Below, one piece after another: positions 36,268-61,600 of a stretch of DNA of 64,000 nucleotides (positions within the stretch are counted from its first letter, which is position 1; every line of letters starts with the position of its first letter). The notes under the pieces were generated by a model that was not told where the DNA came from, did no database searches, and was given only the letters and a program-made list of their open reading frames with translations. Made by a program: the position numbers and the translations under genes. The stretch lies in assembly GCA_030704615.1 (NCBI GenBank), contig CM060733.1, forward strand, positions 64,604,001-64,668,000, read 5' to 3'. Source of the DNA: Takakia lepidozioides (lineage: Eukaryota; Plantae; Bryophyta).

Positions 36268-36477
36268 CGCCCTTGTAGAAGGAGGAAGGGCTTAGATTTG
36301 TCTGGAGTTGCTACATGTGAGACACCGTGTTCGATCAATAAAACAACCCATCGTACCTCACTTCTGTGTGCTCTGTTTCATTGTGTTCAAGAACTGCCGT
36401 AATTGGCCCATTGTTTACAATTTGTGGTCTCATTTCTACAATGTGTCTGTCCACATGAATATACCATACTTCGAATT

Positions 36478-37325
36478 GGAAATGCGGCACCGCATTTTCA
36501 TATTGGACCTTGAATTGTCCAAGCATGTCCAATCGCCAATGCTTGTCCATGTCCGTTTTGGAAATGCGGCACCGCATTTCCATGTCCGTCATCAAATTTT
36601 CTTATTGGACAATGGAATGCGGTGCCGCATTTCCATGTCCGTCATCAAATTTTCTTATTGGACAATGGAATGCGGTGCCGCATTTCCGTCGAAGGGTCTG
36701 GAATTGGACAATCAACGATGTTAGTTCTGGAAATGCGGCACCGCATTTCCATGTCCGTCATCAAAAATTTGTATTGGACAATGGAATGCGGTGTCGCATT
36801 TCCGTCCAGCAAGACGGAATGCCCTCACGCATTTCCGTCCAAGGGTCTGGAATTGGACAAACAACGATGTCTGTTTTGGAAATGCGGCGCCGCATTTCCA
36901 TGTTTGGCAATCGAAAGTTCTTATTGGACAATGGAATGCGGTGCCGCATTCCCGTCCAGAATCATGGAATGCGGAGCCGCAGTTCCGTCGATGGGTCTGG
37001 AGTTGGAAAAACGTCCATCTCCAAAATGGAAATGCGGCACCGCATTTCCATGTCCGCCATTTAAATAACGTGTTCGACCTCCGCATGCGGGGTGACATTT
37101 CCATTTACCTCCATGGAAGGAGCTGGGCAATTGGCAAAACTGCCATGTCGAAAACGGAAATGCGGTACCGCATTTCCGTTCGGCCAAACAGTTTCTGATG
37201 TCCAAACCATGAAACGGAAAATTGTTCTTGCCCCGGTTTTGGAAATGCGGTGCCGCATTTCCAAACGAGGTTTTTGCAGTTCCCACATTTCCGTTCCGAC
37301 ATGGAAATGCGGTGCCACATTTCTG
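36478..37325. repeat. Type-I palindrome array of copy C
   Basis: Copies at about 36478, 36560, 36613, 36666, 36729, 36782, 36878, 36932, 37028, 37156, 37241 and 37303. Confidence 0.9.
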
Positions 37326-37460
37326 ATTTTGGGAGGGACGTGGTTTGGACGATGGTGTCGTTGAGAAGCACATGGGAGAGGGGACATGAAGGACGGGGAG
37401 AATTTCCTTTATATACTCTGGAAGAGAATTTAAATGTACAAAGAGTTCATTAAAATTCTA

Positions 37461-39232: not shown

Positions 39233-39779
39233 CTTGTTCCAGCGTGGGAATTCTTTAGGCACGATTTCACCAATTGCACTGTACCGGATGGATTCAGAAG
39301 CTGGGAGCCGCCACTCTTTGCCCTTTCCGAAATCTGCATGTAGAATGACGGCACTTTCCAGAAAATTTCCATAAGCATCCTTCGTCTCCTCTTCCAAAAA
39401 CACCGTTCCAGGGCGGAGCCTGAACTTCACACACAAGTACTGCTCAGTGACAATCGCAAATCCTTGGTTGCAGGGTATTTTAGCTTTCAGAGAATCAGGA
39501 TGGAAGTACACGTTTACCCAAACACGGGAGTCCATATTGAAGACGGTACCTCTCGGTACGCTCCGCAGCGAAGTCCTGCAATGAGAAAAATATGTCCTAC
39601 ATAATACCACAATCATTTTCTAGAGGATTCTGTATCCAACAGGATGGGTGATCAGTGCACGTATGAATGAAGGTGTGTAACGTACGTTACAAATACGGAC
39701 GACCACAGCAAGTTCACATCGGATATTTGGTGCCTGAATTGTGATGTACCACCAGTTGGGCTATAATAAATCAGGCCTT

Positions 39780-41025
39780 CTCATGAATTTCGGCACCGAA
39801 ATCTGGATGAACATCTCTGTAATGTAACAGATTTGGAAGCCAGAGGATGAATTCTGGCGACAGAAATCGTAATTTGTTCACCTCATTAAACTGAGCAAGC
39901 ACCCGACGGATGGATTTTGGTGCCGAAATTCGGATGAACATGTTCTTCATGAAATTGTTTCTGCCCATAAGGGTTGAATTTCGGCGCCGAATTACGGATG
40001 AATGTGTTCGTGATTACAGTCATGATTCACCACGTGTCCGGATTTCGGTGCCGACATCCGAATGACAGTAATCTTGAATCGGCAGTAGGGATGAATTTTG
40101 GCGCCGAAATTCATCCTTACTGTCCGCAATGGGTAACTATAATATTACATTTTCTATGCGACGGATGAATTTCGGCGCCGAAATTCGTCCGAACCCGACA
40201 CTTACTTCTTGCTTCTGGATAATGTAATGTTCCGAAATTCGTTTGAAATAACCCATTCCGACGAAGATAACACGAATATTCTGCATTAAATGGAGAAATC
40301 GGCACATTCAACCCCATATGTCTTACAAAAGGCCGTTATCCAATGACGAAAGGGGATATTTTTTCATGTTGGGGGAAAATTAATTGCATTTTAGCCGTTG
40401 TTTTCATTTGAAACTGACAGTATCCATTAAGTTTTCATTTTTCGCACGGGACGTTGCCGCACATAAAGTATAATTCCGGTGCCGAAATTATAGTTAACTG
40501 TCCAGACATGGCAAGTCCAACAGGCATGGACAGCAACCGTGAGGGGCAATAATGGCGGCAAAGCGTAGCATGGTGCCGATTTAGTCTTCGCGCTGGATGA
40601 ATTTTGACGCTGAAATATGGATGATTTCACCTCGTCTACGCGCGGACGGAGATATTCTTAATGAATTTCGGCGCTGAAATATGGATGAAATGTGCCCAAG
40701 TGCAGCCGTCTCCACTGTCCCAGATTAATTCCGGCTCCGATATCCGACTGACAGGTTTGCTCATGACGGATGAGGACTGGGGAAGCGATGAATTGCGGCG
40801 CCGAAATTCATAAGTTTGTGTATGAAAGCACTTGCATATGATGAATTTTGGCGCCGAAATTCATCCGTCCGCTGATGAAACGTACCGACTTGACTGTTGA
40901 ATGTCATAGGCAGGGGATTTTCATGGCGGTTGGGTTTCATGATGTGCGGATATTTCATTCAATGTCGGCTGCTCCGGGAACAGCATCCGGTGAACGGAAC
41001 GGTATTTCGGTGCCGCAATTCGGAT
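39780..41025. repeat. Array of type-II palindromes (GGAT)GAATTTCGGCGCCGAAATTC(ATCC)
   Basis: Copies at about 39785, 39849, 39913, 39976, 40040, 40093, 40167, 40599, 40663, 40726, 40790 and 40843. Confidence 0.9.
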
Positions 41026-41553
41026 AAAGCGTCTTGTACTGGTGGCTTGAACAGGCACGCGTCGTGTTCCAGTCGACTTCAACCGTGCGAACGTGTCAGG
41101 GGTCGCAATCTCTTCATCACCCATACGGCAGAAAGTGGTGGACGGTGGCAACGCTTCGGGAGACGTGGCTGCTTACGCAGCTGCCCGTGCACAGTGGTTG
41201 CATGTTCCACCGCTTCGCTCTCTCGCTCCTTGCCCTTCTGCAGTGACATTCTCCTGCGTTTCTTCTCCTTATGCAGCATAGTAGTGGAAGGTCAGGCGAC
41301 TCCGACAAAGAGAAGGAGGACGCGGGAGACGACACGACTTAAGCTCCGTCTCATGCAGGAAATGCAGACCTCGTTATCTGGAGACTCAGATCGCCCACCA
41401 GTGCGAGATTTGTGCTTCGCGGATGTGAAGCACGCCATACGCACTATTCCTTTTACACCTTTTTTTTTGCGTGCAGTGTGTCATGTTTTCCTGTTTGTTT
41501 GACATGGGAGCTGGGGAGGGATCGCAGAGACTCATAGCAACATAGGCCGCGTT

Positions 41554-42345
41554 TTGGGCTCCATGGTGTATCCGGAGAACCTCAAAGTTCCTTTGTGTCG
41601 CATGGTTAGCCTTCCAGATCGACTGAAGCACAACTTTAGAGAGGGGTACAGACGGGGGTCGGCAGCATTCTACGTTTCCATTGAGAATGACCAGGGTGTC
41701 ACAAGGGGCCCTACTGCAGAGGAGCTTCAGAATTGGAGCCCCCACTGGCACACTGTAAATGCCGAGTTTGAAGCCTCTCTTGAGACTAATCCCACATTCG
41801 TACACATGGAAGGGAAGATGTTTTTCGTTTGGGACGGGAACCACAGGATGCTTGCCTGGATAGAGTACATTGCTGAAATGCATCCGCAAGATATCAATTG
41901 GCATTACATGGTGGACTGCATTGTCGTGAAGGTGGACGTCAGGGACAGAGGACTGCTGAAGGGTGCCATGGCGGATATAAATCTGTAAGTATACAACTAC
42001 ATCCTTGTGTACTGCCTATTGCGGCGCCAAAATAGACAATGTTCTTGACTGTCATGCACTCTATGAACTGGAAATTGGATTGATGTGCCGAAATATGGTT
42101 ATTTTTGTATCATATTTTCATGTTGTTCCTTTTTATTTTCTCCATGGCAGGGTAACAGAGAGGGCCTTCGTGGAAACTCATCTGGCACATACGCTCTACA
42201 GAGTGCAAGAAGTGGGAACAGCACCGCTGACGGACTTCCAAAAATCCCTCGATCCCGAGTTGTACAGGAAGTCCTTTGCGAAAGCGGATCGCACCTGGTA
42301 CCGACCAACACTGGACGCCATGGTGGAGATCCTGCTGAATTCTGT
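41554..42345 (+). pseudogene. ParB/Srx-like domain exons of copy E, truncated
   Basis: VPLCRMVSLP, MFFVWDGNHRMLAW, AMADIN, intron, VTERAFVETHLAH; same intron position as copy A. Confidence 0.8.
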
Positions 42346-42404
42346 TAGCTGTTTCGAATGCCTCATCCACTGTATTACGGGGTAGCATATCCACTTTCTT
42401 TTGT

Positions 42405-43100
42405 AATTCAGGTCTTAGTCCACTCACAAACCAAGTCTTCTGTAATCCTGGTGCTGGTACATCAACCAGTTTTTCATCATTAACTCCATCTTTTCCATAT
42501 ATTCTTCAACAATGTCATGCTTCTTTTGCCTCAACTGTTGTAAACTCCCATACACTTCATCTTCAGTTTTGCTTGTCCTGAACCTGTTTCGGAATGCTGT
42601 ACTTAGGCCATTCCAGGTTAGGAAATGATTATTAGGAAACCTTGCATACCATTCACTTGCTTTCTTGATAAGTGAACAAGAAAACAATCTCATTTTGGCA
42701 TCATCGCCATTCTCGTTGTTCATAATACACATGTGCTCAAATTGGCTGATGTGTACATCAGGATCCCCTTTTCCTGCATATATTGGAAAATGTGGCTTTG
42801 CCCGTGTTGAAGGTACTGCCATCTGTGGCCCTACACCCTACCCTTTGATAGGTGCTGGTCCTCATGTAGGTGTTGGTCCTTGAGGACCTGCTGTTGTAGT
42901 GGTGGAACTCCCACCGAGTGTTGGCCCCTAAGCACTCCCTACTACTGGCCCCCCTGTACTTGCAGTACCCTCAGCTCCAGTTGCACTACTTCCCACACTC
43001 CCTATCCCCCCAGAGCCAGATCCAAGCTGCCCGCCTGATCCCCCTGAGCCGACACCTTTGTTGGCCTGTGATCCAAGTGCTCCACTTGATCCAGGTCCAA
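42405..43100 (-). pseudogene. Ty3/gypsy gag fragment
   Basis: YAGKGDPDVHISQFE, RLFSCSLIKKASEWY, TWNGLSTAFRNRF, LRQKKHDIVEEY. Confidence 0.8.
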
Positions 43101-45400
43101 CAGTAGAAACGACAGCGTTGACAATGGCTGAGATGAGGTTACGGTCAGGATGATGGTGGTGGGAGGAGGGGCGGGCAATGTGGTTGCAGATGAGGAATAA
43201 GGAGGTAAGGTTGTCAGTGAAGATGAAGTATGGGGGGGGGGGGGAGGTATCGAGTAGGAGGAGAGCGTCGTATATGGCCATAAGCTTGACCCTGAGAATA
43301 GTTGCAGGGCCAGGGAGTTTGAGGGCCACTCCTCTCCCCGTACCTGTGTGATAGATACCGTAGTTTGCATTAGTTTGAGTAAGGGATCCATCAGTATAAT
43401 GAGAGTTCGCGGGAGGGTATTTGAGGGGGTAGGATTGCCGGTACAATGAGGGAATGGGGGGGAGGGGGTTTGTTGGTGTGGCATGTGGAGGGCGCTGCAG
43501 TGCCTCAATCCAGGCTTTATTTGTTTTAATTCTGGGGAGGGGGGTAGGTATATTTGTACAATGGGGGATAGGTGGGTGGTGGATGATGGCCTTTATTTTA
43601 TGAGTAATGGTTAGTAGATGTTCTAGTTTGTGACAGAAAGGTGTGGGTATGGCAGCGTGGTGGGGGTTTTGTACATGCAAGATGAGGGATAGGGTGGGTT
43701 CATTTTGCCTGAGGTATTTGGGAAAAGGAGGGGTATGGGTATATTTAAGTTGGTTTAGGTCGATTGTGGCTAATAGCTTGACCCTAGCAGGGAGGCGTAG
43801 AAGTGGGTGGGAGGTGGTAGGTGTGTTTTGTTGTGTGAGGATGAGGATAGTTGAAGCATAAGAAGATGAATGCGCAACATATTTGGCCCATTGAAGAGCT
43901 TCATGGGCGAGGGGTCCAGATGGAGGGTGAGCGAGACCACGGCCCTCCCATGTATGCTGAGTAGCATTACCAGTGGCCCCGAAAATACAATCTCTTTGAT
44001 GTGGGCTAGCAAATGTGTCGAGTTCCATAGGGCAGGTTAATGGGTTGAAGTAGTATGAATGAGTGATCTGGAATGTTTTGATAAGTAAGACGAGAATATC
44101 TTTGGGAATAGTATGGTGTGCGCTTGCCGTTTCTAGCCGTGCAAGGGAACGTGGTTTTTTAGGAGGGGTGTCTTTGAGATAGCGGTCGATAAGCCAATAT
44201 ACTTCTGTGGCAAAATCTTGTTTTGGTGGGAATAGCTCCTGTGGGTATGTCTTTGGGGCAGAGTATAACTTGCTCCATAGCCATGTTAATCTATCGTTGG
44301 GGATAAGCCCTATGTAGCGGCCATTTTGTGCATATATACTAGAAAGGCGGGGGTCCATGCAGATTAGTGGTTGAGCATGTTGGATATCTTTGTCCGGATT
44401 ACATTCAACTATGCATATGTGTATGTTGGGGGCCGAGATCAGCTTATGAATGTACCTGTTGTCTGTATGCTGGATGGGGGTGGCATGTTGTTGGTGAATA
44501 TGTGTTAGGTAGTCAATGTTAGTGGTTTTGTAGAACATGGTGAGAAGGGTGAGATTGTGGTCTGGGTCACAATCATCGTGTGGGCCGAATAGATCATCTT
44601 TTATTTGCCATGTATTGTCTTCGTCAGGGTAGCCGCCCACTTGCAATGGTAGTATGTGTCAACACGGGTGGCCCCGAAGGCGTCAGTTGACGTTTGGGTT
44701 AATACCTAGTATGGCTTCAATAACATAGGCATCAGGGTTATCAGAGTTATGCGGGGAGGTAGGGTGGGGCATTATGGGGGATAGTGGGGGGTGGGTGGGA
44801 GGGTCTTGTGTATTGGCTGGGGAGGTTAGTGTTAGGGAAGAGTTGCTGGTTGGCATAATATGTTGTATGGCACGTACTTGAGGAAGGGGATCAGGTTCCG
44901 TAGATGCGGGGGTGTTAGCGGTGTTTGATGTGCAAAGCTTCTGGTAAATGGAGGTGGTTGGGGTTCATATATTGAGGGAGCAAATCTTGGGCTGTGTGTG
45001 GATAGTAAGGGCAGGGAAGATTACAATCAAGGGTGCAGGCTTGGGATGGGTGACAGAAGAGTGTGCGGAGGTGCTGTAAGTACCGGCTAGTTTTGGTTGT
45101 AGCACGCAAAAATTTAGTAGTGAATTCACTTGGCCTTAAAAGTCGGCGACCTGTTGCTGTGATAAGTTGGGTGAGGGTAATAATGTGGCGCTCTTTGAAA
45201 TAAGTGAGGATGGGAATTTTTTGTTTTGGGTGAGAGCGTTCGACTCGTGATAGGAAAGGACTTGTGATCCATGTGCGTTCCATTTGGCGGAGGATGAGTA
45301 GTGTATGCGCAGTGGGGGATGTGCAAGCACACAACAGGTTCCAGCGTTCCTCCTCCCTTGCACTCCAAGCTCGCACCTTCACAAAACTGTCTTTTCGCAT
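43100..45400 (-). mobile_element. Non-LTR retrotransposon fragment with RNase H (same family as 32700-34110)
   Basis: YTDGS...LPGPATILRVKLMAIYDAL...IFTDNLTSLFLI...HHHHPDRN closely parallels 32740-32950; strong C/A skew on the coding strand. Confidence 0.75.
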
Positions 45401-47249
45401 TCTGGCAGTAGCAGCCCGCTCCGTACTCGAAACAATATTATGTTCATATGTATATGTATAGTAGTCGTATATACGATTAGGTAGCCCTGGACCCTAGGCC
45501 CCAGCCTAGGATATAGAATCATTTTAAGAATCTATCCTAAGGCTGGAAAGATTCTTGAAATACCCCAGGCCCGGGTCCAAGGTTCACTTGCTGGCCACAA
45601 AATGTTCCTTTACATTCCCATAGGATACCCCAGCCATGTGGTTGTTTGAGGAACAAAACCCCCAGACATTGTATGTCCTGGGCTATGGAATATTGTCTCA
45701 GGCTTTGGAATCTTTAGCCCGGGCTTTAGAATCTTTCAATGTATGGCTCTTTTTCCATTCCCTAGCCAGCCCCGGCATGAGGACGGGAGCCCGGGCCCGC
45801 GGCACTATCCTGAAAGACATAGTGCCGAGGGGCGCCGGCCTTTATTAGGGTATGTCTTACGGGGAATTTCCCAGGCGGGGCCCATTCCTCCTTTTCTTTA
45901 TCTTTCTGCTTCTTTACTTCTTGTCCTTTCCCTCGTACAATTGAGAAATAACTGGAAAGAAATAAGCTGGAAAGGAATAAGATGGAAAATCTTTACGCAG
46001 GGGAAGTGACTGTCCCTTGGTACTTCCGCCTTTTGAGGTTTGCGAACGAGGGTGTAGTCGTCCTTGAAATGCGAGGGAACTCGCCGTTTGCCAGGTGCGC
46101 AAAGAGCTCGCCTACCCGGGCTGTTGACTGCCTACCCGGCAGAAATGGCTCGGAGAGGGGCATTCCGTCGCACCAACCTGAACGTTCCTCGCCATTGCTT
46201 CACTTGAGAACTTCCGTTAGAATTTGGAACGTCTACTAAGTTACTCCAGGACGCTGATCTGTACTGCGCTCTCTTTAGACTTTAGACGTGCTGTGGCAAG
46301 GCTTCGAGAGCTGCCAGCTGATGGTGTCAAGCCACCAAAAAAGTGCAGCAGCGAGAGTAATTCACACCCGTGCGTGACCGTTGAAGCTTCGAGGAGCCTG
46401 CTGTTGCAATCGTTTCTTGCATCGGGATTGCAAGTACACGCACCAAAATATATCTTTCGGCCTCTTTCATGCGCAGAAGACGGAGTCGCTTGCATATGGT
46501 GGCTATGGCGCCTTTAGGGATGTCATTCAAATTCGGTAATAACACGAAACACTTCGCGGTTTCCTTTCTTGGGGTCGCTTTGTTGTATGTATGCGCCGTC
46601 GGAACCAGGCTCCGAATCGTCCTTTCGCAATTCAGCAAAAACGAATGTAGCGAATGTACTCTGGGCAAAAGCAATAAAGCGCACGGGGTCGTTAGATAAG
46701 GCCTATAATTGGTATATCTGGCGCGTAGGTCAATGCTGGAGCATGGAACTGCGGAGCCAGGAGTTCTTGAAAGATCCTTTACAACGGTGGGACAGGAGCC
46801 TTGACAAGGTGAGCTTTCTTCATGTGGGATGAGAAGGAGTGTGAGGGAGTGTTGAGTGAAGTTAGAATCTCGCTTGCTCTGCAGAAACTACTTTTACTGT
46901 CCATGTCGCAGGTTGTTCTTTCTAAGCAGGGTATGAAAGTAGGATGCGCAAGCGCTTTCCCTGGAGTTGGCAAGGCACTGGGGAGGGTTGAGACTGTGGC
47001 TGCTCAGCTGCTCCCTGGTGGTTTCTACAGACCAGTCCAAAATTTCCAGACTATAGACATAAGCTGGTTTAGCAGCTGTGTAAGTTTGGACATGTTCGTA
47101 TGTTCCTCTTTGTGTAGAGTCCCATGGAGCCCAAAGTGAATGTGGCATGGATGTTGTTGAAAGGTGACTTACACTCCTCTATAAGATACTTGTCCAAATG
47201 TTGATTCTGTGGGATTTTCGGTCACAAAGGTCTACTTTGGATCATGGAA

Positions 47250-48153
47250 GAGCAGAGCTGGCATGAGGTTCTTAAAGATCCTTCACAATGGTGGGACAAC
47301 CGCAATTGCAAGGTGTGGCTTTCTTAATGCTGGACGGGAAGAAGTTTGTCCATCCTGCAAAATGTGGGCTCTTCCTGTTAGTATCACGATTTGGTAATTT
47401 TCCTGGTGTTTGTAAGGTACTTGGGGATGGTCAGTGTGGTCTTAGGAGGCCGAGTTTAGATCTATGGCTGCTCAGTTGCACCATGCTGGTTCTCCTCACA
47501 GACCGATTCGAGATTGCCTGACTACAGACACAAGCAGCACACACAAGGGGACCTTTTGGGTTGATGGTCAGTCGAATCCTCCAAGGGTGAAAGAAAAGCT
47601 AGCTGCTTTCATGACACAAGGTCAAGGACAACTTGGTGAGGGCACCTCCTTCATCAACACAATTCAGTGTTTTTTGCCCTCTCATCAGAGTCGTCCTAAT
47701 TTTCCATGTTGAGTTTTGCAAGTAACCTCGTTTGGTGGATCTATTTGTGGTTGGTGTGATTTTCACATGTTACTGCCAATGTGGCAGCAGGAAAGTATCC
47801 AAAAACAAATAACAAAGACGAGGAGAAGCTTTGGAATGAGTATTTTTCCGACCCCAATCAATGGTGGGACAATCGAGGCAAAAAGGTGAATGGCTGTTAG
47901 ATTACAGAGAGAAGCAGACAACAAGATGCAATACAAAGCTTTGTTGGCAATTGTCATCCTCTCTCTCCCCAGCACAGTTTTAACGTCTTGGGCACTTCAG
48001 CATCAGAGGTAGTGTGTGATAAGTAAGGTTGGGGTGTTTGCTAGAACAAATCTAGGCTGTCATTGTCAGCTGCTAGCAGCAAGGCGAGGGCCTATACTTG
48101 AATGGTGCAGAGGCAGGGCAAGCTGAAGGAGCAGGGATAGAGTGTGGGTCCAG
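47250..48153 (+). CDS. Putative upstream exons encoding OSB-type PDF motifs, apparently spliced to the PPR exon
   Basis: WHEVLKDPSQWWDNRNCK|gt (to 47312); ag|TDSRLPDYRHK..WVDGQSNPPRVKEKL (from 47502, one frameshift); EEKLWNEYFSDPNQWWDNRGKK|gt (to about 47885); ag|IHERGPDFKHKITYDPLW (from 48154). Confidence 0.65.
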
Positions 48154-51100
48154 ATTCATGAAAGAGGGCCGGATTTCAAGCACAAGATTACGTATGATCC
48201 CCTGTGGATTGATAGCCACAAGAAACCTGCATGGGTAGATGGTCAACTGGAAGCAGCAGCAGCAACAGCAGCGGCACAGTTGATAAAATCAGGCACATCG
48301 ACCATCACCACAGCTTCCAAAAGAGGAGCAAGAGAGGGTGTCCACAATGCTGCTTCTGGCACTTCTGGGCATGTGAGGACGCTATGTGAGGCAGGGCAAC
48401 TGAAAGAGGCTCTACAGACTTTAAACCAAGGAGGCATTTCAGTAGATTCAGATACTTATGTCTGTCTCTTGCGTAAGTGCATCAAGATGAAAGGTCTGGA
48501 AGCTGGAAAGCAGGTGCACGCTCACATTATCCAAAGTGGATTCAAGCCAAACGTTTTCCTAGACAACACCCTTGTCAACATGTATGTTAAGTGTGGGAGC
48601 ATCGTGGATGCTCACCAAGTGTTCAACAGAATGCCTCAACGATGTGTGGTCTCGTGGAATATAATGATGGCAGGATTTACCAAGAATGGGTGTGGTAGGA
48701 ATGCTTTGGAGACATATGAGCAAATGATGCGGGAAGGTGTGAAGCCCAACCAGATCACCTTTGTTTGTGTGTTCAATGCGTGTGCGAGCCTTGCAGCCCT
48801 GGAAAAGGGCCAAGAGGTCCATGGTGACATCGTCAAAGCTGGAATTGTACCAGATGTCATTCTGAACAATACCCTTGTGGACATGTATGCCAAATGTGGG
48901 TGCATGGAGCAGGCAAAGCGAGTGTTCGACAATATGGTTGATCGAGATGTGGTGTCGTGGAGTGCAATGATTGCAGGATATGCACTGCAGGGGCGTGGGA
49001 TGGAGGCTTTGGAGACCTATTTGCAAATGATGCGGGAAGGTGTGAAGCCTGACCACATCACGTTTGTTTGCGTTTGCAAGGCATGTGGAAGCCTGGCAGC
49101 TTTAGGAAAAGGCAAAGAGGTCCATGGTGACATTGGCAAAGCTGGAATTGTACCAGATGTCATGCTGAACAATACGCTGGTGGACATGTATGCCAAATGT
49201 GGCTCCATTGAGGACGCAAAGGGAGTGTTTGACAATATGGCTGAACGAGACGTGGTCTCATGGAGCACCATGATTGCAGGATATGCACAGCAGGGGTGTG
49301 GGCTGGAGGCTTTGGCGACCTATGAGCAAATGATGAGGGAAGGGGTGAAGCCCAACAAAATCACGTTTGTTTGCGTTTGCAATGCGTGTGCAAGCCTGGC
49401 AGCCCTGGAAAAGGGCAAAGAACTCCATGGTGACATTGTCAAAGCTGGAATTGTACCAGATGTCATTCTGAACACTGCCCTGGTGGACATGTATACCAAA
49501 TGCCGGAGCGTTGAAGATGCAAAGGAAGTGTTCGACAATATGGCTGAACGAAATGTGGTGTCCTGGAGTGCAATGATCGCAGGATATGCACAGCAGGGGT
49601 ACGGGATAGAGGCTTTGGAGACCTATGAGCAAATGATGCGTGACGGGGTGAAGCCCAACCACATCACATTTGTTTGCGTTTGCAATGCATGTGCGAGCCT
49701 GGCAGCCCTGGAAAAGGGCAAAGAGGTCCATGGTGACATCTTCAAAGCTGGAATTGTACCAGATGTGATTCTGAACAATACCCTGGTGGACATGTATGCC
49801 AAATGTGGGTGCATTGAGGATGCAAAGGGAGTATTTGACTATATGGCTGAACGAGATGTGGTATCGTGGAATGGGATGATCGCAGGATATGCACAGCAGG
49901 GGCGCGGGATGGAGGCTTTGGAGACCTATGAGAAAATGATACTAGAAGGGGTGAAGCCCAACCACATCACGTTTGTTTGTGTTTGCCATGCGTGTGCAAG
50001 CCTGGCAGCCCTGGAAAAGGGCAAAGAACTCCATGGTGACATTGTCAAAGCTGGAATTGTACCAGATGTCATTCTGAACACTGCTCTGGTGGACATGTAT
50101 GCCAAATGCCAGAGCATTGAAGCTGCAAAGCGAGTGTTCGACTGTATGGCTGAACGAAATGTGGTGTCATGGAGTGCCATGATGGCAGGATATGCACAGC
50201 AGGGGCGCGGGATGGAGGCTTTGGAGACCTATAAGCAAATGATACAGGAAGGGGTGAAGCCCGACCATATCACATTTGTTTGTGTTTGCAATGCGTGTGC
50301 GAGCCTGGCAGCCCTGGAAAAGGGCAAAGAGGTCCATGGTGACATCGTCAAATCTGCAATTGCACCAGATGTCATTCTGAACAATACCTTGGTGGACATG
50401 TATGCCAAATGTGGGTGCATTGAGGATGCAAAGGGAGTGTTTGCCAATATGGCTGAACGAGATGTGGTGTCCTGGAACGCGATGATCGCAGGATATGCAC
50501 AGCACGGGCATGGGATGGAGGCTTTGGAGACCTATGAGAAAATGATACAGGAAGGGGTGAAGCCCAACCACATCACGTTTGTCTGCGTTTGCAATGCATG
50601 TGCAAGCTTGGCAGCCCTGGTAAAGGGCAAAGAGGTTCATGGTGACATTGTCAAAGCTGGAATTGTACCAGATGTGATTCTGAACAATACCCTGGTGGAC
50701 ATGTATGCCAAATGTGGGTGCATCGAGGATGCAAAGAGAGTGTTTGGCAATATGGCTGAACGAGATGTGGTGTCGTGGAACGCTATGATTGCAGGCCATG
50801 CACAGCATGGTTGTCATAGGGAGGCCCTACAACTATTTGAAGGAATGCAAATGGAAGGCTTGAAGCCGGACAGTATCACCTTTATATGTGTTCTCTCTGC
50901 TTGCAGCCACGTTGGCCTATTGGATGACGGAAGACGCTACTTTGATTCCCTGAGTCAAGATCATGGTGTCACTCCCACAGTGAAACACTTTGGCTGCATG
51001 GTGGACCTTCTTGGACGTGCGGGACGATTGGATGAGGCAGAGGACCTCATTAATCAAATGCCAATCAAACCAGATGCTGTGGTGTGGAAGGCCTTGCTTG

Positions 51101-51690
51101 GTGCCTGCAGAATCCACGGCAATGTGGAGATGGCTGAACGTGCGGCAACATCTATTCTCAAGTGGGATGAACAGGATGCTGCGACTTATGTGTTGCTATC
51201 AAACATCTATGCCGCAGCTGGGAGGTGGGACGATAGTGCCAAGGTGAGAAAAATGATGAAGGTCAGAGGGGCTAGAAAGGAGCTCGGTTACTGCCGCATT
51301 GAGGTCGGCAACAGGGTGCACACCTTTGTTGTGGATGACAAATTGCATTCCAAAATTAAGGCAATCCATGCTGAGCTGAGAAGATTGTCTGGGCAGATGA
51401 AGGAGGCAGGGTATGTGCCTGACATGCGCTTTGTATTGCATGATGTGGGGGAGGAGCAAAAGGAATTTTCTCTTTGCCACCACAGTGAGAAGCTGGCCAT
51501 TGGTTTTGGGCTGATCAGCACGGCCCCTAGGACGCCTCTCCATCTCATAAAGAATCTTCGGGTGTGTGGTGACTGCCACACCTCCACCAAGTTCATCTCA
51601 AAGATTGTTGGCCGAGCCATTGTTGTACGGGATGCTAACCGCTTTCACCGCTTTGAAGATGGGGTTTGTTCTTGTGGGGATTACTGGTGA
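48154..51690 (+). CDS. PLS-class PPR protein with E and DYW deaminase domains (organellar C-to-U RNA editing factor)
   Basis: L-S-(P-L-S)x7-P2-L2-S2, E1/E2, HHSEKLA, CGDCH and terminal CSCGDYW; uninterrupted ORF of about 1180 codons. Confidence 0.95.
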   Translation: MHERGPDFKHKITYDPLWIDSHKKPAWVDGQLEAAAATAAAQLIKSGTSTITTASKRGAREGVHNAASGTSGHVRTLCEAGQLKEALQTLNQGGISVDSDTYVCLLRKCIKMKGLEAGKQVHAHIIQSGFKPNVFLDNTLVNMYVKCGSIVDAHQVFNRMPQRCVVSWNIMMAGFTKNGCGRNALETYEQMMREGVKPNQITFVCVFNACASLAALEKGQEVHGDIVKAGIVPDVILNNTLVDMYAKCGCMEQAKRVFDNMVDRDVVSWSAMIAGYALQGRGMEALETYLQMMREGVKPDHITFVCVCKACGSLAALGKGKEVHGDIGKAGIVPDVMLNNTLVDMYAKCGSIEDAKGVFDNMAERDVVSWSTMIAGYAQQGCGLEALATYEQMMREGVKPNKITFVCVCNACASLAALEKGKELHGDIVKAGIVPDVILNTALVDMYTKCRSVEDAKEVFDNMAERNVVSWSAMIAGYAQQGYGIEALETYEQMMRDGVKPNHITFVCVCNACASLAALEKGKEVHGDIFKAGIVPDVILNNTLVDMYAKCGCIEDAKGVFDYMAERDVVSWNGMIAGYAQQGRGMEALETYEKMILEGVKPNHITFVCVCHACASLAALEKGKELHGDIVKAGIVPDVILNTALVDMYAKCQSIEAAKRVFDCMAERNVVSWSAMMAGYAQQGRGMEALETYKQMIQEGVKPDHITFVCVCNACASLAALEKGKEVHGDIVKSAIAPDVILNNTLVDMYAKCGCIEDAKGVFANMAERDVVSWNAMIAGYAQHGHGMEALETYEKMIQEGVKPNHITFVCVCNACASLAALVKGKEVHGDIVKAGIVPDVILNNTLVDMYAKCGCIEDAKRVFGNMAERDVVSWNAMIAGHAQHGCHREALQLFEGMQMEGLKPDSITFICVLSACSHVGLLDDGRRYFDSLSQDHGVTPTVKHFGCMVDLLGRAGRLDEAEDLINQMPIKPDAVVWKALLGACRIHGNVEMAERAATSILKWDEQDAATYVLLSNIYAAAGRWDDSAKVRKMMKVRGARKELGYCRIEVGNRVHTFVVDDKLHSKIKAIHAELRRLSGQMKEAGYVPDMRFVLHDVGEEQKEFSLCHHSEKLAIGFGLISTAPRTPLHLIKNLRVCGDCHTSTKFISKIVGRAIVVRDANRFHRFEDGVCSCGDYW

Positions 51691-52687: not shown

Positions 52688-54455
52688 TTACTTGCATAAC
52701 TCTCCGTGTTCAATAGCTACTTGAGCTGCTCCCAAATCTCGTTCAGCCATACTGTCGAACACTCCCTCCGCATCCTCGATGCACCCACATTTTGCATACA
52801 TGTCCACGAGGGTATTGTTCAGAATCACATCTGGTACAATTCCAGCTTTGGCGATACAACCATACACCTCTTTGCCCTTTTCCAGCACACGCACACAAAT
52901 GTGATGTGGTCGGGCTTCACCCCTTCCACCATCATTTGCTCATAGGTCTCTAAAGCCTCTTCCCCGTGCCCCTGCTGTGCATACCCTGCAAGCATCGCGT
53001 TCCACAACACCACATTTCATTCAGCCATATTGTTGAACACTGCCTTCGCATCTCGATGCTCCCACATTTGGCAAACGTGTCCACGAGGGCATTGTTCAGG
53101 ATCAGGTACAATTCCAGCTCTGACAATGTTGCCATGGGCTTCTTTGCCCTTTTCCAGAGCTGCCAGGTTTGCACATGCATTGCAAACCCACACAAACGTG
53201 ATGTGGTTGGGCTTCACCCCTTCCCCCATCATTTGCTCATAGGTCTCCAAAGCCCTCCACCACACGTACCTGCTGTGCATACCCTGCAAGCATCGCGCTC
53301 CATCTCGTTCAGCCATATTGTTGAAAACTGCCTTTGCATCCTTAATGCACCCACATTTGGCATACATGTCCAACATGGCAGTGTTCATAATGACATCTGG
53401 TACAATTCCAGCTTTGACGATGTCACCATGGACCTCTTTCCCTTTTCCAGGGCTCCCAGGCTTGCCCACACATTGCAAACACAAACGAACGTGATGTGGT
53501 TGGGCTTCACCCCTTCGCGCATCATTTGCTCATAGGTCTCCAAAGCATTCGTACCACACCCATGCTTGGTCGTTGAGGCATTCTGTTGAACACTTGGTGA
53601 GCATACATGTTGACAAGGGTGTTGAGTAGAAAAATATTTGCCATTAATCCACTTTGGATAATGTGAGTGTGCACCTGCTTTCCAGCTTCAAGGCCTTTCA
53701 TCTTGATGCACTTAAGCAAGAGACAGACATACGTATCTGAATCTGCTGAAATGCCTCCCTGGTTTAAAGTCTGTAGAGCCTCTTTCAGTTTGTCTGCCTC
53801 AGAAAGCATCTTCACATGCCCAGAAGTGCCAGAAGAGGCATTGTGGACTCCCTCTCTTGATCCTCTTCCATAATCTGTGGTCATGGTTGAGGCGCCTGAT
53901 TTTATCAACTGTGCCGCTGCAACTGCTGCCTTTAGTTGACCATGTACCCATGTAGGTTTCTTGTAGCTATTGATCCACAGGGAATCATAAGTAATCTCGT
54001 GCTTGAAATCTGGCCCTCTTGGATGAATCTGGACCCACACTCTATCCCTGCTCCTTCAGCTATCCATGCCTCTGCACAAATCATGCATTCAACTTTACCT
54101 TGCTGCTAGCAGCTGACAATCACAGCCTAGATTTGTTCTAGGAAACACCCAATCACACTAGTTCCTATGCTGAATTGCGTCTGCTACTCGCTGTAATCTA
54201 ACAGGCATTCAACTTTTTGCCTCGGTTGTCCCACCATTGACTGGGGTCAGAAAAGTATTCATTCCACAGCTTCTCCTCATCTCTGTTACCTGTTTTTGGA
54301 TACTTTCCTGTTGTCACATTGGCAGTATCATGTCAAAGTCACTCCAAACTAGATTCACTCAACCAGCTAACTTGCAGAATTCAACGTGGAAATTTAGGGC
54401 CGATTCTGATAAGAGGGGAAAACAGGGTGAAATGTGTTGAAGAAGCAGTGCCTGA
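52688..54455 (-). pseudogene. Inverted, frameshifted and truncated paralogue of the PDF-PPR gene
   Basis: GPDFKHEITYDSLW, PLS repeats in shifting frames, and an upstream EEKLWNEYFSDPSQWWDNRGKK exon at about 54215-54305. Confidence 0.9.
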
Positions 54456-54459
54456 TTGT

Positions 54460-56375
54460 ATCAATTGTGTCGCTGCTGCTGCAATTTGATTCTCCACCAA
54501 AGCTTTGAATGCTTTGAACCTATCGAGAACTCCAAACTTATTTTACATCATGTAAAGAAATATTTTCTTAGAAAACTCACCAGTGAAGGTCAAGAAATAC
54601 TTTGCACCTTCATGAGATTCAGACGACATATGACCGCATAGATCAGTATGCAACGGTTCAAGAACCTTATTTATTCGAGAACCTCCATCCTTTGGAAATG
54701 AGTTGCGATGGTGTTTACCATATACACATCCATCACAAACACTCAAGACCTGATCTCTTGTAAGATCCATGCCCTTAACCAGATTGTTAGCTGACATGCA
54801 TGCCAAACTTTGCATTGAGACATGTCCAAGTCTCTGATGCCAGAGGTCACTCTGCTTGAATGTAGCATTGCAATCCACATGTAACGCCTGGACAGCCCCA
54901 ACAGCTTGTACAATCTTGCATCTTGAACTACCTTAGTTCAACCAACAATGAATGGTAGAATCCTCAACCATAAGACCTTGCTCAGTTACCTGACTAACTG
55001 ACAATAGGTTCTTTGTCAATCTATGAACATAGAGAACATCTCCGATCTCTCGTGACACTTCAGGTGATAATTGAAACACGACAGTATCTTTTCATGGATA
55101 TCAAGACTAGTAGTACTGTTGTCTCCAAGATACACCTTGTGTCCCACAAAGAGTTCTTTGGAGGTTGAGCATTGGAACGTCATATGTTGAGATGTTCCTG
55201 AATCAATGATTTACCACACATCTCTACAACTGGGAGAGATTGACAAAGCTACAATAAAAAAGTTTAGTTTTGTCAACCATAATTGCCGATAAAACTTCAC
55301 TCTGTAACTTTTCCTTCTTCTCATCGTCTAGCTTTTTCTTGAAGTATTCACGTGCATAATGACCTCTTATGCCACAAAAGAAACATACTTTGTGTTTCTT
55401 CTTTTTGAATTTAACTTCCTTCTTCCATCTTACAACTCTTGGTTAAGATAGAGCCGATTGACGACATGTTTTCTTCCAAAACTGACACATAGATTGAACC
55501 ATGCTTATCTAACAGTTTTAGCATGTGCAACATGATGAAGTAAAGAATCTGCCACATTCAACAACATGGTTCCTCGAGCCAACTTATCTTTCTTCGCAAA
55601 AAGTTGTTGCTCAGGAGTCAACCCTGCGGCTATGATCTCTCCATCTTCAGGCTGCAGTTGAACTGCTGCAACCGCTTCTCCTGATGTGATCTCCCACAGA
55701 TCTTTCTCATGAAGAATGAACTCCATCTTAATCTTCCATGTATGAAAATTGTGATCATCTAACTTCTTCACTCGGATATGATCAGCAGAAGGTGCCATGA
55801 TGCTAGTTTGATGTTTTGCCAACGATAAAACACCCTCAAACTTTCAGATCTAACTCCAAACACTCAAGCTTTCAGATCTGACACCAAGCACTCAACTCCA
55901 AGCATTCAAGCTTTCAAATCTAACCCCAAGCACTCAAGCCTATTGGTTGTAAATCAAATACTCATCTTCTTCTATCTCTTAGACAGAATCAAGCTCTGAT
56001 ACCACGTTGGAATTCGACAGAGAATAGAGGTAAAAGATGAACTGATTACTGAGAACTCTCCACCCAACCATAGGACCACAACAAGCTGTGTGTCCACCCT
56101 CCGAGCTCTCCCTATTTATACTCAAAGTCTAATCCAGAAATAGCTGAGATAACTATAGCATAACTCCATGCTTTTACTTAAGTTATCTCCACCTGATACT
56201 ATGGTATAATGACTTGAGTCACTAATAACTAAAGCTAATTTTAGCTATCTTTTAGCTAACCGAGGCTTATCTCTATTGTTAACTGTGACTTGTCAGCACT
56301 CTTTTTATGGAAGCCTGACTTGTCATCACAGTAACTTTAGGTAGTAGTAACTTGGTCAGGAGTTGATTTCCAACA
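54460..56375 (-). mobile_element. 5' part of a Ty1/copia retrotransposon (LTR, PBS, gag, protease, GAG-pre-integrase, integrase start)
   Basis: LTR 56005-56375 (TGTTGGAA...TTCCAACG); Met-tRNA PBS TGGTATCAGAGC at 55993-56004; NFHTWKIKMEFIL; LWHQRLGH..CDGCVYGKH; HTDLCG. Confidence 0.9.
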
Positions 56376-56527: not shown

Positions 56528-57440
56528 GGAGTTGGGCATTACATCAGACGAGGGTCTGAGTCTGGATGAGCTCCCCAAGAAAGTGGTTGTTGTCGGTGGT
56601 GGGTCTCTATGTTGGATGTGAGAAGGAAAGACTCCACAACACATAACGAACTCATACATTGCATGTTCTTGACAAGTGACCTCTGTGCAACTTTCCTTCC
56701 ATGCTTCAAAACTTGTGTTGGTCGTCACAACAGGATGGCCAAATTGTTCATAGTTAAATCACGGAGGAAATGAAGAGCAGTTTTGTTCATTAAGTTGTGG
56801 CTCCTGTGAAATAGAGGAAGGTGTTGGATGCAGCAGTTCCATCTTTTCCTATTCTGAAGCTGAATGATGGAGGGATTGATATGGTGGTGTGTGGAATAGG
56901 TACATCGTTGTAGAGTTTGTGGGTATCTATAATGGCATGGGAGCTGAGGTGGACTTGTTCTACAGGAAGCCTCTTCCTTTGACGTAAGTGGAGAGATTGG
57001 TTTTGTATTTTGTAGCTGTAAGTGTCCCTGTCTGTGTGATCAGGGTTGGAGGTGACTTGAATAGGTCCTGTCTGTGTTGGTGAACTTCAGCTAGCAACGC
57101 TTGATCCTTCCATGCTGGAGTGGACAATGCACGCAAGGGACTCACATGATGAATTGGTCGTTTGAATTGATTGAAAGAAACCCTGTAAGTGACTTCTGTG
57201 TAGGGGTTTTGACGAGGAAATGAGATCTATTGTAGCTCGCAACTTGGAGGGCCGAGGCATCAAATGTCACCCCGGTGTAAATATTACAAAGGTCGGAATT
57301 TATCTTCTTTTGTTTGCTAGTCTTACTCGTGCATGAATCCACAAACCCAGGTTTGTTGATTGAATGAGGAGCAGGAGAGTGGATGTGTGACCTGAGGAAC
57401 GAAATCCAAAATTGTGCCAGATACCATACTTTAACCTGCC
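56528..57440 (+). pseudogene. Glutathione reductase gene fragment (2-3 exons with introns)
   Basis: [24 protein letters not shown] (56528-56600) and [27 protein letters not shown] (56900-56983) match the NADPH-binding region of plant GR; flanked by AG/GT. Confidence 0.75.
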
Positions 57441-58612
57441 CTCATCAACATATACTGTAAATGTGGCAGCATATATGATGCAAACAGAGTGTTGAAAAAA
57501 TGGCTACACGAAATGTGGTGTCATGGAGTGCAATGATTGCAGGATATGCCCAGTATGGGTTTGGTAAGGAGGCGTGTCATGGAACACAATGCTTGCAGGG
57601 TATCCACAACAGAGACGTGGTATGGAGGCTTTGGAGACCTATGATCAAATGATGGGGGAAGGGGTGAAGCCCGACCACATCATGTTTCTGTGCATTTGCA
57701 GTGCGTATGCAAGCTTGGCAGCTCTGGAAAAGGGCAAAGAGGTCCATGGCAACATTGTCAGAGCTGCAGTTGTACCAAATGTCATTCTGAACAATACCCT
57801 CGTGGACATGTATGAAGGGAGTGTTCGACAGTATGGCTGAACGTGATGTGGTGTCGTGGAGTGCGATGAGAAAATGATACAAGTAGTGGTGACACCGGAC
57901 CAGGTCACGTTCATCTGCATTGTCAATGCCTGTGCAAGCCTGGCAGCCCTAGAGAAGGGCAAAGTTGTCCATGATGACATCATGAAAGCCAGAATTGTGA
58001 CAGATATTGTTCTGGATACTGCCCTGGTTGCATGTATGCCAAATGCGGTGACATACAGGATACCCGTCATGTGGTTGACAATATGGCTCAACGCAGTGTG
58101 GTCTCATGGAACACAATGATCACAGGATATGCCCAGCATGGGTGTGGTAGGGAGGCTTTGGAGACCTATGAGCAAATGATTCAGCAATGGGTGATTCTGG
58201 ATACTGCCCTGGTGGACATGCATGCCAATTGTTGGAGCATAGCTTATGCACGTCGAGTGTTTGACAACATGGGTCAAAGAAGTGCGATCTCATGGAATGC
58301 CATGATTGCAGGATATGCCCAGCGTGGATGTGGTAGGGAGGCTTTGGAGATTTACGAGCAAATGATACAGGAAGGATGAAACCTGACCAGGTGATCGCCT
58401 TCATTTGCGTTGTGCGTGCTTGTGCCAGCCTGGCAGCCCTGGAGAAGGGCAGACTGGTGCATGCTGACATCCTGAAAGGTGGAATTGTGCCAGATAGCTT
58501 TCTTGAAAATACCCTGTTGGATATATGTATTCCAAATGCGGGAGCATAAATGGTGCAAAACAGGTGTTTGACAATATGACTCAACGAGATGTAATCTCAT
58601 GGAACACCATGA
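57440..58612 (+). pseudogene. Degenerate PLS-PPR repeats
   Basis: Same repeat family as 48154-51690, with many frameshifts and stops. Confidence 0.9.
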
Positions 58613-61600
58613 GCTGCGGATGGAGGATGGTGTCTTTGAGGTGCGAATCCTCCGCAGGCAGATCGCCTCGAACATCCTCATCTGCCAAAGATAGCAGGTT
58701 AGTGTGGTAAACACAATCCATAGTGGAAGTGTGTACATCTGCTATTCAGAACTCAGACACAAAAAAATCATTTTTATCACGAATCGGTGATGATCGTTGT
58801 CGATCATAACAGATTCTACTAGAGTGGAGCTGCAGAGAACATTGAAACTCATCATGAAAGCACAAGCAGAAGGGAGACGGCATACCAGCTGACCAGGGAA
58901 ACCCCCTTTCACAAGGTAGAGGCTGTTCACACAATTCCATGTGCGCAAAACTTCAAACCCTGAAGACTTGAGGTATGATGCCAATGCCCGACGACTATCA
59001 TTGTCACATGACTGAAAAATCAGAAGTGTCCCTGCATCAGAGAGGAAGTTATTACAGAACCCGAACACCCAACTCCAGTAGTTGTCCTCGAATTTGTTCC
59101 AGCCTGGCGTCTTGCCCTTTGGAAGAACTTCTGGCACAGCCTGGCCATCCGGAATGTCGAGAATAACAATGTCGGCCGCATAAGTTTTCTGCACACCGCA
59201 CACGAAGGTGGGACCTGTGCTCACCTGCAACAGACATGTTTTTTATAAGAACGAAAGCAAGAATGTTTTCAAAGAACGAGACTGAAATACTGCCAACGAA
59301 ACTTTCAGAGAAAAAGGAAAGAAACTGGAATTCTCACCAGATTGAGGAATGAGATTATATTGTCCCAGGTAGGCGATGGCACCCCAATGTATCCTCTCTT
59401 TCGACTTTGCATCATTGACAGTCAACCCCCATTAACAATTTTCATCTCTCCTGCCGAATCAGAATGGGAAGGGTGTGGCTTGGCATCGAACACGCACTGA
59501 ACAGTGCGGGTATATCTTCCAGCAGTAAAGTCCTGCCCACTCTCCATCTCCTTTTTTTTCTCCTTCCCCTTGTCTTTTTCCTTCTCTTTGGACTTGTCTT
59601 TGTCCTTTGGCTTTGCTGGTGAGATGGCTATGACATCAACAGCCTTGTCTTTTGGTTTGCGGCCCGCCTTCTTTCCCTTCTACGGCGTTCCCTGAGCATC
59701 AGGCACCTTGGCAGCCAATGTTGCTATGTTTCGTTGGTACTCTTCGTCAGTCAAAGGCGCCAGCATCTCAACGTTATTGTTCAAGTATTTCATATGTTGT
59801 TCTTGAAAGGTCGTGTGCTCCGGTGGGCAGTCAAGGTACCACCCACAGTCTCTGAAGTGAGAAGGACTCCAGTCCTTCAATATCCCTGCAGTATACATGG
59901 TTGGATCGTTTGCAGGGTCCGACCACATGTCAAGATAGTCTGGAATTCCGCTCAGGTGATTTCCTTCCATAAGCACATATTTTGTGTACCTGAAAAAAGG
60001 AGATAAATCCCAACCCACAAAAGCGCTCAGTGAGTAAGATGCAAGTAGAACAGAATGAAAAAAACATAGATTGAAATGGCTCTGAGAACTGCTCCAAAGA
60101 CCTTTCAGGACCACACGAATGCTCCAGATGTGAATGTCGTCAACGCCATTCAAAACATTCCATTCAATGATACTGTAAATACACCCTAATCCAGGTGAAT
60201 GCAAACTATCGTTTTGGAATGACACGGACATAGAAGTGAATGTCGTCAACGACATTCACTAATCAAGCCTAATTATTCCTCAAATGAAGCAAAATCACAG
60301 GATGGAAATCATAAACTCGAGTAAGGAACCCTCCAGGAAAACTCAATGCACATTCATAACGAACATATCACTGAGGACCTCACAACAACACTGTATGTGA
60401 ATGGCGTCAACGCCATTCACAAAAATACCAACAAGGAACCAATTACTCAGCTCCTAATCCATGTAAATTCAAATTGTCGCTGTTGAATAATACAGACACA
60501 GAAGTGAATGTCGTCAACGAAATTCACTCTGGATTTCTCATAACAGAGCTTATCAAGCCTCCAGATTCCTCGCAAGAGGCAAAAACAATGCAGAACAACT
60601 GAATGTCTGCATTGACATTCAGCAATATGAAGTGAGGAACCCTCACTGTAACCTCTATGGACATTACAAAAATTTACATAACTCTGAGGACCTCTCAACA
60701 ACTCCGGATGTGAATGTCGTCAACGCCATTCAAGGACATTTTCAATTCTAATCAGGGACACTATAATTACACCCTTAGATCCTAACCAGGTGAATTCATA
60801 TACTCGCTTAAGAATGACTCAGACAAAGAAGTGAATGTCGTCAACGACATTCAATCTGGATCTATGATTACAATCCTTATGAAGCCACATTTTTTTATTC
60901 CCGAAAAAAACAATAGAGTTTCAAGTATGACATTGCACTTGTACACAACTCGCATCATGGCCCACTCTCCTCCAACCTGACTGTCAAAGTCGTTGGACCG
61001 TAAAATGTTACCATCTTTGGAGAACTCCCGGAAAAAACAGTATCTCCAGGTGAGACCTCTCCACTTCCTTATGTATGCCTCCAATGACATTTGGGGAGGG
61101 GAAACAATCGAAATGTTCAGGTCCTTCAAAGTCTGATCCAGCACAATGACGGCGCGCTTTTCGAGTTGCAAATAGTATATTTGTCAGAATTGCAAATAAG
61201 ATACTCATCACATACTTGAAGAGAAGAAAACGGTGTTTGAATACACACCTTACTCCAAAATGTAGCCTTGTGGAGCCAGTTATCAAACACCAAATCACTG
61301 ATTCCTTCCACCTTTGTGCCAGGCTGTATGGTGCTCTTTGGGAACTGATTCAAGTCCTTTACTGTTTGATCTGAGTTCCATATCTCCAGCCACCTTATTT
61401 TTGTTTGTGGGTCGACCATCGATATGGCCAGCCGGTGCAATTTCTCCTGCTGCATCTCCGGATGCACATGCTTGTCATAGTGTGTTTTGATCTGCTGAAG
61501 GAACTCAGGACCAAGTCCAAGATCTACTATTTCTAAGCTGCTTTCCGAAGGCGGACATCAACTTGGTTCTTCGAATTTCAAACTCCTTCTTTATTGCAGT

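Follow-up and report, generated by a model that had tools for sequence, protein, structure and literature searches.

We analysed a 64,000-nucleotide (nt) stretch of the genome of the moss Takakia lepidozioides (the window; contig CM060733.1 of assembly GCA_030704615.1, positions 64,604,001 to 64,668,000 of the forward strand), in which a pentatricopeptide repeat (PPR) gene with a terminal DYW deaminase domain appears to be fused to PDF domains of the type found in OSB proteins, which bind single-stranded DNA (ssDNA) in organelles. On balance we favour the interpretation that this multi-exon gene encodes an organelle-targeted PLS-PPR-E-DYW C-to-U RNA editor in which one OSB-type PDF domain is intact; the predicted role of this domain is to clamp single strands irrespective of their sequence. 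An earlier sequence-only reading of this DNA had placed a DYW-PPR editing factor here, and the intact frame bears this out: the plus-strand open reading frame (ORF) at 48127-51690 has zero internal stops over 1187 amino acids (aa) from stop to stop and matches PPR, the E motif and the DYW deaminase in Pfam (E 3e-40). Since the earliest in-frame ATG of this ORF, at 48487, falls within the first PPR repeat, the coding start must sit on upstream exons. That reading began the feature at 47250, a boundary that did not hold: a third PDF unit and a likely targeting exon put the gene start near 46469.

An intron-split PDF domain precedes the PPR frame

PDF has no Pfam model. We used a hidden Markov model (HMM) of 54 positions to score the PDF sequences of the window; its 144 training PDF domains come from 82 proteins left unflagged by the PPR profile. 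The first half of the PDF domain nearest to the repeats (PDF3) lies, behind a spacer, on exon C (47791-47885, …EEKLWNEYFSDPNQWWDNRGKK; a tandem acceptor also lies at 47788), which ends at a GT donor. A 268-nt GT-AG intron (47886-48153) follows, and a CAG acceptor, which lacks a pyrimidine tract, precedes the second half at 48154-48249 (IHERGPDFKHK…LWID…PAWVDGQL), at the start of the long exon D. Joined in phase 0 and in frame, PDF3 scored 75.4 bits over HMM positions 1-54, i.e. its full length, a score comparable to those of the best fused PDFs; the halves separately scored 29.9 and 38.0 bits, and the best unrelated six-frame segment of the window 8.8 bits. The proposal that a PDF motif is completed across a GT-AG intron, by joining 47885 to 48154, was thereby confirmed. 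PDF3 keeps the invariant residues of the domain, which are aromatic and basic. The intron position is common to other PDF genes: a filter on the junction gave 22 rows, of which 11 were second-half-only ORFs that carry Gln (CAG) there because the CAG acceptor is read through and the other 11 were complete variants. Complete PDFs carry Lys at that junction in 136 of 140 cases.

Ahead of the linker and repeats the locus is made of three units of roughly 500-560 nt, each consisting of a PDF first half, a GT-AG intron and a PDF second half (U1, 46729-47069; U2, 47230-47635; U3, 47791-48249), and alignment of the DNA identified U1 and U2 as tandem duplicates. In a six-frame motif scan of the window, PDF-like halves were confined to this locus and to an inverted copy of it. 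The second, frameshifted PDF that the sequence-only reading had seen further upstream was recovered at 47244-47312 plus 47502-47635 by three-frame reading. Its first half is on exon A (47230-47312, with an ATG at 47244 and an acceptor taken from a locus-exact contig; 25.9 bits as a genomic segment) and its second half on exon B (47502-47635), where a frameshift occurs near 47535-47560 and a conserved Trp is changed to Arg at 47584; up to the frameshift PDF2 scored 47 bits. PDF1 (46729-46808 plus 47031-47069; 22 bits) is the most decayed of the three. Its first half, the 80-nt exon U1 (46729-46808), duplicates exon A, and its second half is a relic (47031-47069; TSPKFPDYRHKLV, then a stop).

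An AlphaFold model of a close OSB PDF showed a compact helix-strand-strand-helix domain with a predicted local distance difference test score (pLDDT) of 83-93 over residues 1-60. A fold search with the predicted PDF reached a best Z of 3.6 among 48,161 chains, there was no evident sequence match to the PDF columns in the PDB, and two word-based searches of proteins that started from the PDF half of the window itself gave no match among 66 and 279 candidates. Two candidates from the ESM Atlas, PPR-like clusters (0.88) and phage gp49 (0.78), were both below the usable level and were set aside; the gp49 lead was also unsupported by PHROGs and Pfam scans.

We then compared PDF3 with its counterpart in the inverted paralogue. 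There were 9 synonymous changes over 29.2 sites and 9 non-synonymous changes over 132.8 sites, which gives a ratio of non-synonymous to synonymous change (dN/dS) of 0.18 (Fisher p 0.0009). In the same comparison the linker had a dN/dS of 0.55 and the first repeats 0.51. The proportion of non-synonymous differences (pN) in PDF3, 0.068, was below the divergence of intron B (0.19).

The PPR array and the deaminase

Translation of exon D beyond PDF3 gives an Ala/Ser/Thr-rich linker with an N-cap helix ahead of the repeats (48250-48450), followed by a PLS-class PPR array (48451-51075) composed of L-S, seven P-L-S triplets and P2-L2-S2, and built on a 303-nt tandem unit. Canonical residues occupy code positions 5 and last in 15 of the 16 P and S motifs scored, S2 being outside the scored set. 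The remainder (51076-51690) holds the E1/E2 motifs (PF20431, E 7e-17), an altered PG box and the DYW deaminase, and its C-terminal 197 aa match a synthetic C-to-U editor with E 1e-96. The catalytic HxE(x)nCxxC zinc signature (HHSEKLA, with HSE, and CGDCH), the second zinc site and the terminal DYW are intact (HRFEDGVCSCGDYW).

Transcript models

Splicing was followed in contigs of two runs, X1 and X2. At 90% likeness, 2,116 of 151,969 X1 contigs and 812 of 97,386 X2 contigs aligned to the 2.45 kb between 46300 and 48750, and most were 90-99% alike, which indicates that the gene belongs to a large paralogue family. The 47885/48154 GT..AG joint was present in 3 X1 and 2 X2 contigs at this likeness, and joints into 47787-47793 and out of 47885 occurred in both runs. 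Joints from about 47631 into 47787-47793, also in both runs, we read as the probable B/C intron of paralogues. A skip from exon A to exon C (47312/47791) was also among the X1 joints listed; combined with acceptor 48154 it is out of frame, and combined with acceptor 48141 it is open for 1,264 aa but the PDF is broken, so both of these models were rejected. At 98% likeness neither run covers 40500-46148 (21 of 30 bins), a gap that we did not count as evidence.

One 131-nt X1 contig, with 0 mismatches to the locus, joins 46808 to 47230 over GT..AG, that is, exon U1 to exon A, skipping the relic second half of PDF1. Further upstream, the loose end at 46726 of an X1 paralogue contig matches 46505-46520 (1 match, 0.04 expected), which places a donor at 46535/46536 and thereby defines exon E1 (46469-46535, with its GT donor at 46536) as the likely first coding exon. 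This exon encodes 22 aa, six of them Arg or Lys and none Asp or Glu, resembles a presequence, and is in frame both with U1 and with exon A; we infer that it supplies the start codon and organelle targeting. The E1-A-B-C-D model is likely to be the family layout, with two PDFs; in this copy it stops after 70 aa because of the frameshift in exon B. Inclusion of the 80-nt exon U1 puts exon A off frame, offsets the exon B frameshift and therefore restores a single frame: E1-U1-A-B-C-D is open from the ATG at 46469 to the DYW stop. The predicted 1,331-aa product has a basic N-terminus, scrambled PDF1/PDF2 sequence and an intact PDF3; E1-C-D would give 1,232 aa. The 44 off-frame codons were free of stops in 8.7% of 10,000 shuffles, or by arithmetic about 3% when a one-in-three frame match is also required. 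The open off-frame stretch thus lends modest support to a living gene.

Summed contig depth is not a copy number and cannot rank splice joints. Most of the aligned depth at 47584 encodes Trp in both runs, as against Arg in this copy, and PDF2 is therefore likely to be intact in many paralogues. At 48380 most aligned depth has an ATG (Thr to Met), an in-frame Met just ahead of the repeats in many paralogues.

PDF-PPR proteins in other organisms and the origin of the fusion

A profile made from the two copies of the window's PDF second half plus linker was searched against 1.84 billion cluster representatives and gave 107 matches at E <= 0.001. Among these, 41 had an OB fold, 6 were flagged as PPR, none were both and 60 were neither. 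Proteins with PDF, PPR and DYW, which the sequence-only reading had suggested looking for, do exist. The complete PDF-PLS-E-DYW order was found in Ceratodon purpureus (M758_6G094700) and Diphasiastrum complanatum (O6H91_09G020300 and 18G040000), and PDF-PLS proteins lacking DYW in the deposited model in Diphasiastrum (01G119900/12G041000 and 16G064700) and Ceratodon (KC19_6G098400). PDF-PPR also occurs in the ferns Adiantum capillus-veneris and A. nelumboides, again in deposited models lacking DYW; one 4,755-nt Logan contig encodes a PLS protein with three PDFs and no DYW, and Sphagnum jensenii has fragments of the type with a short linker. This list is a lower bound; no liverwort or seed-plant case was among the matches listed. 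Complete PDFs that score 60-75 bits stand ahead of PPR arrays in proteins of moss, lycophyte and fern origin, and the OB fold was found in 0 of the 17 fusion-type sequences tested. Two linker types could be distinguished. In three Diphasiastrum genes and the Sphagnum fragments a short A.M.PG..Q linker leads straight into a P repeat; the Takakia gene, Ceratodon, one Diphasiastrum gene and the Logan protein have a long linker with a cap helix. All related PDF-PLS proteins are deposited as hypothetical or generic PPR proteins, and the lack of a Pfam model for PDF, together with the intron that divides the domain, likely explains why the fusion has been overlooked.

The domain nearest to PDF3 is an OSB-type PDF (39 of 54 residues identical), with which it grouped at 84/71 support in a tree, and the cluster of that nearest PDF includes an OB-fold member named single-stranded DNA-binding protein. 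None of the five PDFs nearest to PDF3 (down to 31/54) comes from fusions of other organisms. The closeness of PDF3 to an OSB-type PDF hints that the domain may have been captured from the lineage's own OSB. Trees were built from 35 of 240 domains, picked by nearest identity, over 53 columns. Independent origins of the fusion were considered when the approximately unbiased test, given 12 fused and 23 other rows, ruled against a single clade (p-AU 0.0002); two of the rows classed as other proved to be PPR-fusion fragments, and after relabelling a single origin was not rejected (p-AU 0.095 with 14 rows, 0.20 with 10 rows). Proteins with up to 8 tandem PDF repeats and neither OB fold nor PPR were also seen (the set P0008, P0010, P0014, P0017 and P0106), one of them from the dinoflagellate Cladocopium, and a 165-aa protein in this set combines one PDF with an unrelated N-terminus. 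PDF is not confined to plant OSBs.

Comparison with known proteins

The gene shares with PLS-PPR-DYW editors (Physcomitrium PPR56, Arabidopsis OTP86 and the synthetic consPPR-DYW, PDB 9kfx) the P-L-S triplets, P2-L2-S2, E1/E2, HxE and CxxC, second zinc site, terminal DYW and canonical code residues. It differs from them in the N-terminal PDF or PDFs on intron-split exons, in a longer array (L-S plus eight triplets) and in the altered PG box. OSB proteins (AtOSB1-4) have a transit peptide, an OB fold and 1-5 C-terminal PDF domains. The PDF domain, its tandem repetition and the phase-0 intron recur here; unlike OSBs, this gene has no OB fold, and its PDFs are N-terminal and followed by a linker, PPR and DYW spanning about 1,150 aa. 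An OB profile found nothing better than E 1.1 in the six frames of the window, although the same profile accounts for the 41 library matches of 107. Since it lacks the OB fold and has N-terminal PDFs, the predicted product is not an OSB.

In domain order the gene agrees with the PDF-PLS proteins of Ceratodon, Diphasiastrum, Adiantum and Sphagnum. RRM-PPR, ORRM1 and MORF likewise bring an additional nucleic-acid-binding or helper module to a PPR editor (PMC13386178), but they are of unrelated fold and mostly P-class or angiosperm, whereas the PDF fusions are PLS-class and from non-seed plants. In the literature found, a PDF-PPR fusion is undescribed; the supplements of PMC13386178 and subscription papers could mention it. 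OSB or PDF is not named in the available portion of a 2026 survey of editing-factor fusions (PMC13386178), nor PPR in that of a 2026 OSB phylogeny (PMC13393729), nor PDF in that of a review of moss PPR proteins (PMC9459714). What this analysis adds is the tandem arrangement of the PDF units, the duplicated exon that restores the frame, an estimate of selection and the division into two linker types.

Proposed function and alternative explanations

The family layout that emerges is a presequence, 1-3 tandem PDF units, PLS, E and DYW, with spare PDF copies decaying in this copy. We suggest that exon E1 would direct import into mitochondria or plastids, and that E1-U1-A-B-C-D splicing would yield the 1,331-aa protein, U1 compensating for the exon B frameshift. 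The sequence recognised by the repeats would be roughly YnUGnUAnAAnUYnAGnUYnUU, and the DYW domain would deaminate a cytidine downstream of it. PPR arrays lie along RNA with their N-terminus towards its 5' end and their C-terminus towards its 3' end (PMC13041630, PMC13324415), and the N-terminal repeats contact the 5' part of the RNA first (PMC13324415). This polarity would put PDF3, carried by a flexible low-complexity linker, on the 5' side of the sequence that the repeats recognise, at the start of the RNA track. There we consider it somewhat more probable than not that PDF3 acts as an accessory clamp that raises affinity, keeps the target unpaired or holds the editor at the ssDNA of transcribed nucleoids. 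We call the clamp accessory because PPR56 edits without its N-terminus: in E. coli it is active with only 14 residues ahead of the first repeat (PMC10482289).

If this is correct, a built-in single-strand-binding domain would be an overlooked part of the editing machinery in mosses, lycophytes and ferns. The editing factors of non-seed plants are generally regarded as working mostly on their own, with no MORF-type helpers. The N-termini of editing factors are usually cut off in experiments. The domain could also link the maintenance of nucleoid DNA to RNA editing, and could improve engineered PPR editors.

Several observations weigh against this interpretation. Both runs are only guessed to be RNA, and the 47885/48154 joint, on which the sequence-only reading had hinged its case, was present in contigs of the family at 90% likeness but absent at 98% likeness in both runs, that is, from contigs exact to this copy. 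Locus-exact contigs instead read into introns: one (48144-48231) extends 10 nt into the PDF3 intron, and in another (47435-47542) the sequence runs unspliced through the acceptor of exon B. The alternative off-frame acceptors 48141 and 48111 were also used among the X1 joints listed, and the joins of E1, A/B and B/C are known from paralogue contigs only. Exon E1 is short, has a weak ATG context and resembles a presequence by composition only. In the deaminase, the PG box at 51283 reads LGYCRIE as against PGxSWI/PGxTWI in three relatives, the PGxSWIE of the DYW:PG subtype is absent, and Pfam E+ is not matched here, unlike in two relatives. Strands one and two of the deaminase fold come from the PG box (PMC7611903), whose alteration may impair this copy. 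As for selection, the pN of PDF3 is not far under the divergence of intron C (0.10), and the synonymous proportion (pS 0.31) is high, so that dN/dS may be flattered; the two intron divergences set against pN somewhat weaken the test. Finally, the activity of PPR56 without an N-terminal domain suggests that such a domain would be unneeded for editing as such.

Some of these points fit a family that is real and a copy that is decaying, with the PDF intron mostly kept or mis-spliced, the deaminase impaired and little working protein made. We regard this as a serious but clearly less probable alternative. Two of the three PDFs are broken, exact contigs read into introns and none has the productive joint, the PG box is altered and two PPR pseudogenes adjoin the gene; yet the 3.5-kb exon D contains neither stop nor frameshift, catalytic and second-zinc motifs are intact, code residues are canonical, and a splice found in an exact contig brings the frame from E1 back into register. 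It is rather unlikely that the PDF exons are passengers, taken along with an OSB promoter and targeting exon and serving as mere spacer or leader, a possibility the sequence-only reading had left beside that of a true fusion. Decay of PDF1 and PDF2, which are off-frame in the open model, would be expected of passengers; the greater similarity of PDF3 to an OSB PDF (39/54) than to the fusion PDFs of other organisms fits a recent capture, and editing works without an N-terminal domain (PMC10482289). This account fits less well with what was retained, however: the OB fold, which in OSBs lies between transit peptide and PDF, is lost and the PDFs are kept, PDF3 has a dN/dS of 0.18, PPR arrays of moss, lycophyte and fern proteins have complete PDFs in front of them, and most aligned depth keeps the PDF2 Trp. 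In-frame splicing, the invariant residues, the selection estimate and the shared architecture thus favour a real fusion of PDF and deaminase, of which the nucleic-acid-binding part is predicted.

The AtOSB1 PDF alone suffices for ssDNA binding, according to a review (PMC6963530), a designer PPR protein uses the same code to bind ssDNA, at reduced affinity (PMC13041630), and OSB1 limits R-loops (PMC8330923). These reports would suit a fusion acting on DNA, with ssDNA of the organelle held by PDF, read by the repeats and deaminated or guarded by DYW. We consider this very improbable: the rest of the protein has the canonical build of an RNA editor and is close to a synthetic C-to-U editor over 197 aa, several fusions lack DYW, a large family suits many RNA sites, and targeted C-to-U change in organelle DNA would presumably be mutagenic. 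Equally improbable is a role of PDF in oligomerisation or protein interaction, through which the editor would dock on OSB or nucleoid complexes. In its favour, AtOSB2 forms a tetramer (PMC6963530) and PDF is predicted to be a compact domain, but the sole recorded function of an isolated PDF is ssDNA binding, and its invariant residues are aromatic and basic. The best reading of the predicted protein is thus an RNA editor rather than a DNA editor. A bolder and very unlikely scheme would make PDF-PPR-DYW proteins programmable cytidine deaminases tethered to organellar ssDNA and built repeatedly from a lineage's own OSB, which would edit transcripts at the transcription bubble and in some cases deaminate DNA, linking editing to organelle mutation.

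The inverted paralogue and other features of the window

The inverted paralogue (52733-54452, minus strand) is a pseudogene that shares only PDF3 with the main locus. It carries exon C, a mutated donor that reads TT, the PDF3 second half and frameshifted, truncated PPRs, and it has no DYW. By BLAST, its similarity to the main locus is limited to introns B and C, exon C and the beginning of exon D; a search of the sequence upstream of it gave no match to PDF2. The view that it has the same layout as the main gene therefore stood for the last PDF and failed for the rest. Just upstream of its exon C, 54452-54490 (minus strand) is a copy of the start of the post-PDF linker (AAAATQLIQSG), and in the main locus contig loose ends at 48261-48270 diverge from the locus, one of them running into a likely donor; it may be that the PDF3 unit is duplicated in some paralogues. 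In the place expected for exons E1, A and B, directly upstream of the paralogue, lies what we take to be a decayed copia-like retroelement (about 54500-55800, minus strand), in which gag, zinc knuckle, protease and integrase-like motifs were read by eye. A third, more decayed PLS-PPR relic occupies 57402-58612 (plus strand), with about 70-75% DNA identity to the main array and many frameshifts.

Elsewhere in the window, an F-box/Kelch gene exon was identified by Pfam at 3637-4383 (minus strand). At 12769-12964, 19380-21039, 36549-37060 and 29896-30191 there are arrays with unit lengths of 31, 53 and 64 nt, organised around a core, GGAAATGCGGYGCCGCATTTCC, that is nearly palindromic. Two blocks, 11159-15842 and 34159-39235, are 88-90% identical; they and the segments 21164-28183 and 58742-60255 contain several long ORFs lacking Pfam matches, likely belonging to an unclassified transposon family, and related transposon-type frames recur at 14598-16139, 38354-39619 and 58742-59242. 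A 576-aa frame at 42928-44658 (minus strand) matches PCIF1_WW weakly (E 2.7e-4, which misses the curated cut-off) and is possibly a methyltransferase-like domain of a retroelement.

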